From: Escherichia phage HY02
Reading direction: 5' to 3' (one strand)
DNA: 64,000 nucleotides
Sequence record: KM092515
The position numbers and the translations under genes are program-made. Below the pieces are notes generated by a model that saw only the letters and a list, made by a program, of their open reading frames with translations, did no database searches and was not told where the DNA came from. Shown here one piece after another: positions 5,238 through 6,718 of this stretch. Positions within the stretch are counted from its first letter, which is position 1; every line of letters starts with the position of its first letter.

Positions 5238-5315
5238 GGGAGATTGACGGTAATTGGTAAACCTACCATCCTTAGAAGTTGGTGTTTGAGGGTTCGAATC
5301 CCTTGTCTCCCACCA
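5238..5315 (+). tRNA. tRNA with anticodon TAG (Leu-type anticodon, short variable arm; isotype uncertain)
   Basis: Acceptor GGGAGAT/GTCTCCC, T-arm GAGGG-TTCGAAT-CCCTT, encoded CCA; best anticodon loop CTTAGAA with a 4/5-bp stem; only about 5 nt of variable region. Confidence 0.55.
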
Positions 5316-5322
5316 AATTAAT

Positions 5323-5398
5323 GCAGGTGTAGCAAAATGGTTATGCGGCTGACTCTTAATCAGTAAGACGATGGGTTCAATTCCCTCCACCTGTACCA
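5323..5398 (+). tRNA. tRNA-Lys (anticodon CTT)
   Basis: Acceptor GCAGGTG/CACCTGT, anticodon stem GCTGA/TCAGT with loop CTCTTAA, T-loop GGTTCAATTCC, encoded CCA; paralogous to the TTT tRNA at 4096. Confidence 0.75.
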
Positions 5399-5404
5399 AA
5401 CAAT

Positions 5405-5480
5405 GGGGTCATAGTTTATATGGTTAAAATTCGAGTTTTGCAAACTTGGGAACTGAGTTCAATTCTCAGTGACTCCACCA
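5405..5480 (+). tRNA. tRNA-Ala (anticodon TGC)
   Basis: Acceptor GGGGTCA/TGACTCC with the G3:U70 alanine identity pair; anticodon loop TTTGCAA; T-arm CTGAG-TTCAATT-CTCAG; encoded CCA. Confidence 0.75.
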
Positions 5481-5486
5481 ATTAGT

Positions 5487-5561
5487 GCATCCATAGTTTA
5501 AACGGGAAAATTACAGTCTTCCAAACTGAGGTTGAGGGTTCGATTCCCTCTGGATGCTCCA
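5487..5561 (+). tRNA. tRNA-Gly (anticodon TCC)
   Basis: Acceptor GCATCCA/TGGATGC, anticodon stem CAGT/ACTG with loop CTTCCAA, T-loop GGTTCGATTCC, encoded CCA. Confidence 0.75.
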
Positions 5562-5568
5562 AATTAAT

Positions 5569-5644
5569 GCTCCTATCGTATAATTGGCTATTACGGTTGC
5601 CTTGTAAGCAACTTATCAGGGTTCGAATCCTTGTGGGAGCACCA
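5569..5644 (+). tRNA. tRNA-Thr (anticodon TGT)
   Basis: Acceptor GCTCCTA/TGGGAGC, anticodon stem GTTGC/GCAAC with loop CTTGTAA, T-loop GGTTCGAATCC, encoded CCA. Confidence 0.8.
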
Positions 5645-5741
5645 ATTTAGAGGTCAAGTGAAAGACCGCTTTGAGTCAACTGAAGACCGTAACAAATTCC
5701 ACGGAGTTGAGTTAGCGGCACAACTTCAGACCTCTTTTCAC

Positions 5742-5816
5742 ACTCGCTTAGTTTATATGGTAAAACATCACCCTTACAAGATGAAGAAAAAGGTTCAAGT
5801 CCTTTAGTGAGTACCA
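5742..5816 (+). tRNA. tRNA-Val (anticodon TAC)
   Basis: Acceptor ACTCGCT/AGTGAGT, anticodon loop CTTACAA, T-arm AAAGG-TTCAAGT-CCTTT, encoded CCA. Confidence 0.7.
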
Positions 5817-5817
5817 T

Positions 5818-5895
5818 GTTCCAGTATCCCAATTGGCAGAGGATGCAAGCTCAAACCTTGTACTAGTGACGGTTCGAATCCGTCTTGGAACACCA
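5818..5895 (+). tRNA. tRNA with anticodon CAA (Leu-type anticodon, short variable arm; isotype uncertain)
   Basis: Acceptor GTTCCAG/TTGGAAC, anticodon stem GCAAG/CTTGT with loop CTCAAAC, T-arm GACGG-TTCGAAT-CCGTC, encoded CCA; 78 nt. Confidence 0.55.
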
Positions 5896-5900
5896 ATTTT

Positions 5901-5976
5901 GCAGGATTAGTTCAAATGGATAGAGCAACAGTCTACGAAGCTGTTAATAGGGGTTCGAATCCCTTATCCTGCGCCA
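5901..5976 (+). tRNA. tRNA-Arg (anticodon ACG)
   Basis: Acceptor GCAGGAT/ATCCTGC, D-arm AGTTCAAATGGATAGAGC, anticodon stem ACAGT/GCTGT with loop CTACGAA, T-loop GGTTCGAATCC, encoded CCA. Confidence 0.8.
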
Positions 5977-5995
5977 ATTTAAAGAGGCTATTTAA

Positions 5996-6553
5996 ATGAG
6001 ATACTTGAAGTATGCTTCATGGATTTTCTTAGCTTTGCTAGAACCATTGGCAGCAATCTTAGCAGTTATCTTAGCACCTTTTGTAGTTCCATTTTACAGT
6101 GAGAAGAAAGGACACTTACCTTTTGGATTCAGATGGATGGAGACATATGACAACCTGATTGATGGTGATGAAGGTCACGTTAAAAGATGGGCTAAGATTA
6201 GAAAGATTGGTAAGCTTGGTGTCTATTTGCAGAGAGTTGGATGGCTCTGGAGAAACAAAGCTTATAACTTCTCTTACCATGTGTTAGGAAGAGATGTAAA
6301 AGATGTTACTAAGTGGAAAGGTAATATCAACGTAAGTTCTGACCCTGAAGATAATCAGACAGGTTATCTCCTAATGTGGAACAGTAATGCTTGGGGATTA
6401 TTCGCTTTTATCCCATCAATTAAAGTCTTTGGTAAACAATTCTACTGGAGAATTTATGTTGGATGGAAGCTAAAAAGTGTTGTCCCAGAAGAAAGAGCAT
6501 TCTCAAGGGAAAGAGTTATGTTGGCATTCTTTATTCATCCACTGAGAAAGTAA
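5996..6553 (+). CDS. hypothetical membrane protein embedded in the tRNA array
   Basis: 185-aa ORF with AAAGAGG RBS; strongly hydrophobic N-terminus (ASWIFLALLEPLAAILAVILAPFVVPF) and Trp-rich body; tRNAs on both sides. Confidence 0.6.
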   Translation: MRYLKYASWIFLALLEPLAAILAVILAPFVVPFYSEKKGHLPFGFRWMETYDNLIDGDEGHVKRWAKIRKIGKLGVYLQRVGWLWRNKAYNFSYHVLGRDVKDVTKWKGNINVSSDPEDNQTGYLLMWNSNAWGLFAFIPSIKVFGKQFYWRIYVGWKLKSVVPEERAFSRERVMLAFFIHPLRK

Positions 6554-6561
6554 AGATTTAA

Positions 6562-6637
6562 AGGGGATTAGTTTACAAGGTTAAAACCTCGGTCTTTGAA
6601 ATCGAAGAAGTTGGTTCAATTCCAACATCCCCCGCCA
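6562..6637 (+). tRNA. tRNA-Gln (anticodon TTG)
   Basis: Acceptor AGGGGAT/ATCCCCC (A1-C72 mismatch), anticodon stem TCGGT/ATCGA with loop CTTTGAA, T-arm GTTGG-TTCAATT-CCAAC, encoded CCA. Confidence 0.7.
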
Positions 6638-6639
6638 AT

Positions 6640-6718
6640 GCTCCATTACTCCAATTGGCAGAGAGGCCAGACTTAAAATCTGTGTTATGTATCGGTTCGA
6701 ATCCGATATGGAGTACCA
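6640..6718 (+). tRNA. tRNA with anticodon TAA (Leu-type anticodon, short variable arm; isotype uncertain)
   Basis: Acceptor GCTCCAT/ATGGAGT, anticodon loop CTTAAAA with a 4-bp stem, T-arm ATCGG-TTCGAAT-CCGAT, encoded CCA; 79 nt. Confidence 0.55.

Follow-up and report, generated by a model that had tools for sequence, protein, structure and literature searches.

Type I leucine tRNA genes with short variable loops in the tRNA array of Escherichia phage HY02 and their relatives in other phages

Can a phage of enterobacteria carry leucine transfer RNAs (tRNALeu) that lack the long variable arm? The textbook rule is that every bacterial leucine tRNA has a long extra arm, which places it among the type II tRNAs. 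The tRNA array of Escherichia phage HY02 (sequence record KM092515), analysed here over a stretch of 64,000 nucleotides (nt) called the window, appears to break this rule three times. The initial annotation reported three tRNAs with leucine anticodons at 5238-5315, 5818-5895 and 6640-6718, with only 5-7 nt between anticodon stem and T stem, and proposed either that the anticodon assignment was off or that the tRNAs are non-canonical. ARAGORN finds the three genes with identical coordinates and anticodons, and the intervening segments measure 5, 6 and 7 nt. The analysis confirms that the genes code for type I tRNALeu, combining a leucine anticodon with a short variable loop that ends in U48, and that their anticodons are correctly assigned.

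The tRNALeu(UAG) gene (5238..5315, plus strand; 78 nt including CCA) was identified by ARAGORN, by the Rfam tRNA model RF00005 (38.9 bits) and by segment alignment. Its anticodon lies at 5273-5275, its variable loop TGTTT (5 nt) at 5283-5287, and the molecule ends with A73 and an encoded CCA. An extra base brings its slightly irregular D arm to 21 nt, and the anticodon stem has a U30.U40 mismatch. ARAGORN and the covariance model disagree on the register of this D arm; the one proposed by ARAGORN finds support in the encoded A73-CCA end. The tRNALeu(CAA) gene (5818..5895, plus strand; ARAGORN; Rfam 43.6 bits; 78 nt including CCA) has its anticodon at 5852-5854, the variable loop ACTAGT (6 nt) at 5862-5867, A73 and CCA. 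Its 20-nt D arm is TATCCCAATTGGCAGAGGAT and its core displays A9, C12-G23 and C13, a combination named class A below. The tRNALeu(UAA) gene (6640..6718, plus strand; ARAGORN; Rfam 47.5 bits; 79 nt including CCA) also has a class A core, with the anticodon at 6674-6676, the variable loop GTTATGT (7 nt) at 6684-6690, A73 and CCA, the 20-nt D arm TACTCCAATTGGCAGAGAGG, a G1.U72 pair and a mismatched C27/U43. All three score above the Rfam gathering threshold of 29 bits for tRNAs.

A wrong anticodon assignment does not fit these data. The anticodon loops delimited by the Rfam covariance model are CUUAGAA, CUCAAAC and CUUAAAA, corresponding to UAG, CAA and UAA. Each tRNA has thus a leucine anticodon (NAG or YAA) in a 7-nt loop, placed identically by ARAGORN and the covariance model, and the GenBank records of relatives annotated with tRNAscan-SE name the same genes Leu TAG, CAA and TAA. 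The covariance model neither moves the anticodons elsewhere nor reveals long arms, and a mis-folded long arm is excluded by the number of bases available, which is too small. The variable regions of 5, 6 and 7 nt have no stem and fall outside type II. The array provides its own internal comparison in three tRNAs predicted by ARAGORN on the plus strand, tRNASer(UGA) (4892..4981), tRNASer(GCU) (7741..7833) and tRNATyr(GUA) (3581..3668), whose variable regions of 20, 21 and 15 nt, respectively, contain stems, in agreement with the long arms that had been attributed to them. Of the proposal that the leucine tRNAs are non-canonical, what stands is the type I short loop; they are otherwise canonical tRNALeu. 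A search pattern in which a leucine-type D loop and a leucine anticodon loop are followed, after a short spacer, by a T loop has exactly three matches in the window against 0.01 expected by chance.

The anticodon loop of the UAG species (CUUAGAA, window 5271-5277) carries A37, where the host leuW tRNA has G37 (UUUAGGU); the type II tRNALeu(UAG) of phage T5 also has A37. Leucine tRNAs reading CUN codons normally carry 1-methylguanosine at this position (m1G37). The phage tRNALeu(UAG) has A37 and therefore would not receive this modification.

Leucine identity in E. coli is determined by A73, A15-U48, G18G19, A20a and tertiary pairs between D and T loops (Giegé and Eriani review, PMC9976931). 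The anticodon and the long arm are dispensable for it, and arm-less variants stay active (PMC9976931). The E. coli K-12 leuW, leuX and leuZ tRNAs, which have the same anticodons, were aligned segment by segment with the phage tRNAs. The three phage molecules have A73, U8, A14, A15, G18G19, A20a, U48 and the T loop TTCGAAT in the alignment. The bases U8-A14, A15-U48, G18G19, A20a, U54, U55, C56 and A58 that confer identity for E. coli leucyl-tRNA synthetase (LeuRS; PMC9976931, PMC6614811) are thereby present in each of them, and would pair in three dimensions. The D arm of the CAA and UAA species, TA-YCC-CAATTGGCAGA-GGR-N, has the length and register of the host arm TG-GCG-AAATYGGTAGA-CGC-A, with a 3-bp stem and an 11-nt loop that position A14, A15, G18G19 and A20a as in the host. 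The UAG species has one base more than the host register.

These features were condensed in a leucine signature composed of the 20-nt D arm U8 R9 NNN N13 A14 A15 N N G18 G19 N A20a N A22 NNN N26 together with U48 and A73, which was counted over all distinct ARAGORN tRNAs in every locus retrieved for the analysis. It is found in none of 1427 non-leucine tRNAs, in 121 of 169 long-arm tRNALeu and in 137 of 164 short-arm tRNALeu. The CAA and UAA tRNAs of the window match it; the UAG tRNA misses it on D-arm length alone (21 nt), and its homologue of T5-like phages matches. Features of other isotypes are lacking in the three molecules: their 3-70 pairs are G-C, U-A and U-A, not the G3.U70 of alanine tRNAs, and their short loops and discriminator A73 rather than G73 do not correspond to a substrate of seryl-tRNA synthetase (SerRS). 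Isotypes were also scored with ad hoc hidden Markov models (HMMs) built from about 1000 phage tRNAs in which the anticodon was masked and from which the variable region was cut out. These models are weakly discriminating, naming correctly only 19 of the 25 window tRNAs, and were dropped for the explicit D-arm/U48/A73 signature, which had zero false positives.

Comparison with other phages brings signs of function. The window belongs to a genome of Felixounavirus, the genus of Felix O1-like myoviruses that infect E. coli, Salmonella and Shigella, and its 5 kb around the three genes are 96-97.5% identical to dozens of genomes of that genus. In BLAST searches, 254 phage records, that of Felix O1 (AF320576) among them, contain the CAA gene, and 351 contain homologues of the UAG gene; about 260 of the latter are T5-like siphoviruses at ~85% identity. 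The carriers, some 250-350 phage genomes, belong to the Ounavirinae and, for the UAG gene, also to the T5-like phages. T5 itself was rejected as a source of the short UAG tRNA, its single tRNALeu(UAG) being an 85-nt type II molecule; other T5-like phages carry the short one. Shigella phage Sf16 (Mooglevirus) has short UAG, CAA and UAA tRNALeu, the latter near-identical to the window's with one difference, at position 32 of the anticodon loop. Erwinia phage vEam_PM_21 (Kolesnikvirus) has short CAA, AAG and UAA tRNALeu, and Pectobacterium phage Wc4 combines a short tRNALeu(UAG) at 4004-4081 with a normal 87-nt type II tRNALeu(UAA) at 6241-6327. Salmonella phage Si3 has a short UAG species whose anticodon stem is fully compensated. 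Paired stem substitutions separate the tRNAs of these phages, for example at positions 2-71, 4-69 and 29-41 of the UAG tRNA.

Pairing was quantified over 68 aligned short-arm tRNALeu, all distinct: the three of the window and 65 from a random sample of viral and phage-database examples. In this set 97.4% of stem cells are paired, against 57.6% after column shuffles and 35-46% with slid partners; each of the 20 stem pairs has changed on both sides, with a covariation score of 1.06 versus 0.25. The pairing test was repeated from pattern geometry alone because ARAGORN pre-selects cloverleaves. The result is bimodal: 87 of 138 viral pattern matches have at least 15 of 17 stem pairs, the remainder being random, and the 87 well-paired matches have A73 without exception and U48 in 85 cases.

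Individual phages show further particularities of these genes. The U30.U40 mismatch of tRNALeu(UAG) is conserved: the window, Wc4 and T5-like phages all have it, and the pairs on either side covary. In Si3 the anticodon stem is replaced by a fully paired one. Escherichia phage Gostya9 codes at 8997-9073 for a short tRNALeu(UAG) with C33 (loop CCUAGAA), a position at which U33 is near-universal in tRNAs. Si3 also has at 4617-4695 a chimeric tRNA with the 5' part of tRNALeu(CAA) and the rest of tRNALeu(UAA), joined within D-arm sequence common to both genes, all that lay between the two, Arg(ACG) and Gln(UUG) included, being deleted. Its acceptor stem is mismatched (GTTCCAG with ATGGAGT). The chimera looks like a product of homologous recombination between two class A tRNALeu genes.

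How common are such short molecules among viruses? The short-spacer pattern retrieves at least 120 loci from the IMG/VR database. Among the loci listed there are 111 tRNALeu with variable loops of 5-7 nt (106 distinct sequences), of which 97 have 5 nt, nine have 6 nt and five have 7 nt; U48 is invariant in the 111 and A73 is found in 106. Serine and tyrosine tRNAs encoded in the same listed loci retain long arms. A second IMG/VR scan, made in the same order with any spacer admitted, is therefore unbiased by arm length and yields 28 short versus 59 long tRNALeu among pattern matches, and 4 short molecules among the 33 bystander tRNALeu of these loci that do not match the pattern. Nine long-arm tRNALeu of the IMG/VR sample are in loci that hold also a short one. 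On these figures, about 12-32% of the phage tRNALeu sampled are short. Bins labelled as giant viruses in IMG/VR (GVMAG; loci L037 and L128) also match the short-arm pattern. Across the viral loci, a G1.U72 wobble pair is present in 45% of short-arm tRNALeu, 27% of long-arm tRNALeu and 11% of all other tRNAs.

In a scan of bacterial genomes, 35 of about 120 matches listed lie within tRNAs. The listed matches include 44 short tRNALeu in 32 loci, of two kinds, figures that inform on presence and context and not on frequency. Most are single chromosomal genes of Actinomycetota (Nocardia, Rhodococcus, Gordonia, Mycobacterium, Amycolatopsis, Bifidobacterium and others). The remaining ones come from assemblies of Acidobacteriota, Planctomycetota and Asanoa in which 15-35 tRNAs are crowded within 8 kb. 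These very dense arrays, each with several short-arm tRNALeu (L176, L178, L188 and L229), could represent prophages, phage contigs binned in error or units of tRNA arrays.

The short and long forms were compared position by position, on 135 short and 133 long tRNALeu. Positions 9, 12, 13 and 23 pack against the variable region in the tRNA core. Long tRNALeu have there, almost uniformly, G9, G12-C23 and R13; among short tRNALeu, A9 is found in more than half and C12-G23 in about two thirds. Class A, defined by A9, C12-G23 and C13, is the largest single class of short tRNALeu (roughly 40%) and includes the CAA and UAA tRNAs of the window, tRNAs of the Erwinia and Moogle phages and the actinobacterial chromosomal genes. 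Its core sequence suggests an adaptation to the short loop. In class B the type II core is kept and the arm is absent, as in the UAG tRNA of T5-like phages. The window's UAG tRNA is a class B variant (G9, G12-C23); HY02 thus carries both classes.

On these grounds it is likely that the three genes code for functional phage type I tRNALeu that are charged by the host LeuRS and serve UUR and CUN codons. The tRNAs would be transcribed and processed with the rest of the array after infection, the host synthetase would charge them through A73 and the corner formed by the D and T loops, and the charged molecules would decode UUA/UUG and CUN codons. SerRS and bacterial tyrosyl-tRNA synthetase (TyrRS) depend on the long arm whereas LeuRS does not, which explains why the neighbouring serine and tyrosine tRNAs keep their arms; among the three bacterial type II tRNAs, arm loss would be possible only in tRNALeu. 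Leucine codons in the open reading frames (ORFs) of the window, whose GC content is 39%, are distributed as TTA 28%, CTT 27%, CTG 16%, TTG 13%, CTA 11% and CTC 5.5%, whereas in E. coli CUG makes up about half of leucine codons. The AT-rich phage relies heavily on the UUR/CUN codons that these tRNAs would serve, and far more than its host. A phage-encoded LeuRS was considered and rejected for the window, where none of the seven ORFs of at least 590 amino acids is a synthetase.

Several observations weigh against this assignment of function. The window covers 64 kb of a genome of ~87 kb, and a phage-encoded factor could lie beyond it. In the UAG tRNA the D arm is irregular and one stem position is a U.U mismatch, and the isotype HMMs give leucine as best hit for the UAA tRNA only, the UAG species being tied between Leu, Ser and Gly and the CAA species between Arg and Leu. 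Thermodynamic folding of the single sequences yields minimum-energy structures that are not clean cloverleaves, with z = -1.1 to -1.6. Weak single-sequence folding is usual for unmodified AT-rich tRNAs. The main doubt comes from Streptomyces coelicolor: E. coli LeuRS failed to charge the type I tRNALeu(CAA) of this organism (Fan et al. 2019, PMC6614811). The enzyme is described in the same work as charging type II tRNALeu only, with a leucine-specific domain that favours a large variable loop (PMC6614811). The Streptomyces tRNA, moreover, is likely to have a class A core like the CAA and UAA species of the window, to judge from the copies of other Actinomycetota. The literature is in conflict here, arm-less E. 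coli variants being active (PMC9976931) and the Streptomyces type I tRNALeu failing (PMC6614811). The Streptomyces tRNA has C48 and the phage tRNAs U48, and A15-U48 is an identity element of E. coli.

There are two alternatives to functional leucine tRNAs. In the first, the genes would be pseudogenes in decay, derived from type II tRNALeu that lost their arm by deletion, became inactive and fell out of use. Some annotation pipelines lean that way, flagging homologues as pseudo 'tRNA-OTHER' (RefSeq record of Si3) or 'tRNA-Pseudo-TAG' (Yersinia phage phiR2-01), and the three tRNALeu have the lowest Rfam scores among the tRNAs of type I length in the array, with one stem mismatch in each of the UAG and UAA species. 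Decay is nevertheless difficult to reconcile with intact acceptor stems, T arms and encoded CCA, with maintenance of the genes in hundreds of genomes of several genera and of three isoacceptors together in one phage, or with compensatory substitutions at every stem pair and the constancy of U48 (111/111) and A73 (106/111) among the diverse viral examples listed; we hold it to be extremely improbable. Scarcely more credible is that these are type I tRNAs of another amino acid with a misread anticodon, or that some synthetase other than LeuRS acts on them, with recoding of leucine codons as the result. Such an idea could draw on the type I shape and on the HMMs, which for two of the three do not separate Leu clearly from Arg, Ser or Gly. 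It is opposed by the concordance of two programs on the anticodons and by a D-arm/U48/A73 signature that is exclusive to leucine (0/1427 controls), and neither the G3.U70 pair of Ala nor the long arm or G73 of Ser is there. The synthetases for Phe, Ile, Met and Val, which read the anticodon, need GAA, GAU/LAU, CAU and NAC, respectively, none of which occurs in the three tRNAs.

A different question is why the arm is absent, and here a selective explanation compatible with functional, host-charged tRNALeu deserves attention. The arm might have been lost as an adaptation against tRNA-directed nucleases and not by neutral simplification: an arm-less tRNALeu would escape host defence nucleases that read or cut the arm, or an attack of the phage itself on the type II tRNALeu of the host, so that phage translation could continue. 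The E. coli defence systems Retron-Eco7 and Septu do cut the variable loop of host tRNATyr, which T5 tRNATyr resists with a different loop (PMC13096335, PMC11555353), and human SLFN11 uses the arm of type II tRNALeu. Short tRNALeu are frequent in viral contigs (28 short versus 59 long pattern matches) when 'almost all' bacterial tRNALeu are type II (PMC6614811), and the presence of the short UAG tRNA in the unrelated Felix O1-like and T5-like phages at ~85% identity suggests transfer followed by retention. However, our literature search found no bacterial nuclease that targets tRNALeu via its arm; the phage tRNATyr, whose arm is a proven nuclease target, keeps it long; and an eLife survey of phage tRNA escape from nucleases deals with anticodon loops only, never mentioning the variable arm. 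Many Actinomycetota, which are not known to face such pressure, also have short tRNALeu as single genes on the chromosome, and the neutral account, a LeuRS without need of the arm, already explains why only tRNALeu lost it. We regard nuclease escape as an unlikely cause. The broader scenario, in which phages repeatedly shed or replaced the tRNALeu arm and spread the short form horizontally, the arm being a handle for nucleases of the host or of the phage itself, is similarly doubtful. If true, short tRNALeu would be a counter-defence or self/non-self device with codon supply as a secondary role, and a linked corollary is that E. coli LeuRS would be efficient in vivo on type I tRNALeu that occur in nature, against the published view of an enzyme restricted to type II.

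The array that holds the three tRNALeu spans 3089..7913 and has 25 tRNA genes, all on the plus strand, found by ARAGORN and Rfam, with small ORFs interspersed; most of the 25 have a genome-encoded CCA end. Two weak tRNA-like remnants lie between its genes. The one at 3839-3889 scores 22 bits with the tRNA model and has kept a T arm (GAAGG-TTCGATT-CCTTC), and the one at 4798-4872 scores 23 bits with the tRNA-Sec model. A tRNA-Asp annotated after tRNA-Tyr in relatives is not found by ARAGORN in the window. The ORFs adjoining the array code for domains of unknown function. Directly upstream, positions 1508-2923 (plus strand) encode a 471-amino acid protein with DUF2828 and DUF7788 domains, whose homologue is labelled 'RNA-binding protein' in the Si3 record. 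Small ORFs without assigned function within the array include 5996-6553 (DUF7338) and 6942-7739 (DUF7217).

The three genes are a modestly surprising exception to a textbook rule and raise the question whether E. coli LeuRS charges such tRNAs. If the host enzyme does, they would prove by natural example that the best-studied LeuRS can do without the arm, and would offer ready-made material for studying the purpose of that arm. The pseudogene and 'other' labels that annotation pipelines sometimes give distort counts of phage tRNA repertoires. Our literature search found no paper describing short-arm tRNALeu in phages.

Several known systems frame the phage tRNAs. T5 tRNATyr, which resists Retron-Eco7, is likewise a phage tRNA of a type II family with a variable region unlike that of the host (PMC11555353, PMC13096335), but its arm is altered and not lost, it belongs to another isotype and its escape is shown by experiment. 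Animal mitochondrial tRNALeu(UUR) is also type I, with A73 and A14 as identity elements, and is charged without a long arm (PMC9976931); it differs in being organellar, structurally floppy, unrelated in sequence and served by a dedicated LeuRS. Another case is that of the engineered arm-less E. coli tRNALeu (Larkin et al. 2002, summarised in PMC9976931), which E. coli LeuRS charges on condition that A73 and the interactions between D and T loops are preserved. Both are retained in the phage tRNAs; the variants are laboratory constructs studied in vitro. The natural E. coli isoacceptors leuW (UAG), leuX (CAA) and leuZ (UAA) share with the phage tRNAs the anticodons, A73, U48, G18G19 and A20a, and with two of them (CAA and UAA) a 20-nt D arm. 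They differ by stemmed variable arms of 13-15 nt, G9, G12-C23 and, in the UAG species, G37, where the phage molecules have loops of 5-7 nt, A9 and C12-G23 in two of them and A37 in the UAG one.

A natural counterpart is the S. coelicolor type I tRNALeu(CAA), with a 5-nt variable loop (ACAGC) and C48, which is charged by its own LeuRS via a particular leucine-specific domain (PMC6614811). Like the phage tRNAs it combines a short loop with a leucine anticodon; it coexists with type II tRNALeu and a single LeuRS and has A14-U8 as identity element. Chromosomal copies of other Actinomycetota have the D arm TAGCCCAATTGGCAGAGGCA, the loop NCAGT and, like the CAA and UAA tRNAs of the window, a class A core. 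The S. coelicolor molecule is, by contrast, cellular and has C48, whereas the class A phage loops of the window (CAA and UAA) have 6-7 nt and end with U48; it relies on a special Streptomyces LeuRS, while those of the phage have to function in E. coli or Salmonella. The Streptomyces exception had been presented as rare and in need of a special LeuRS, and the same architecture is found in hundreds of E. coli and Salmonella phages. Type I tRNALeu were thus already known from animal mitochondria and S. coelicolor; in phages they are apparently unreported yet common.

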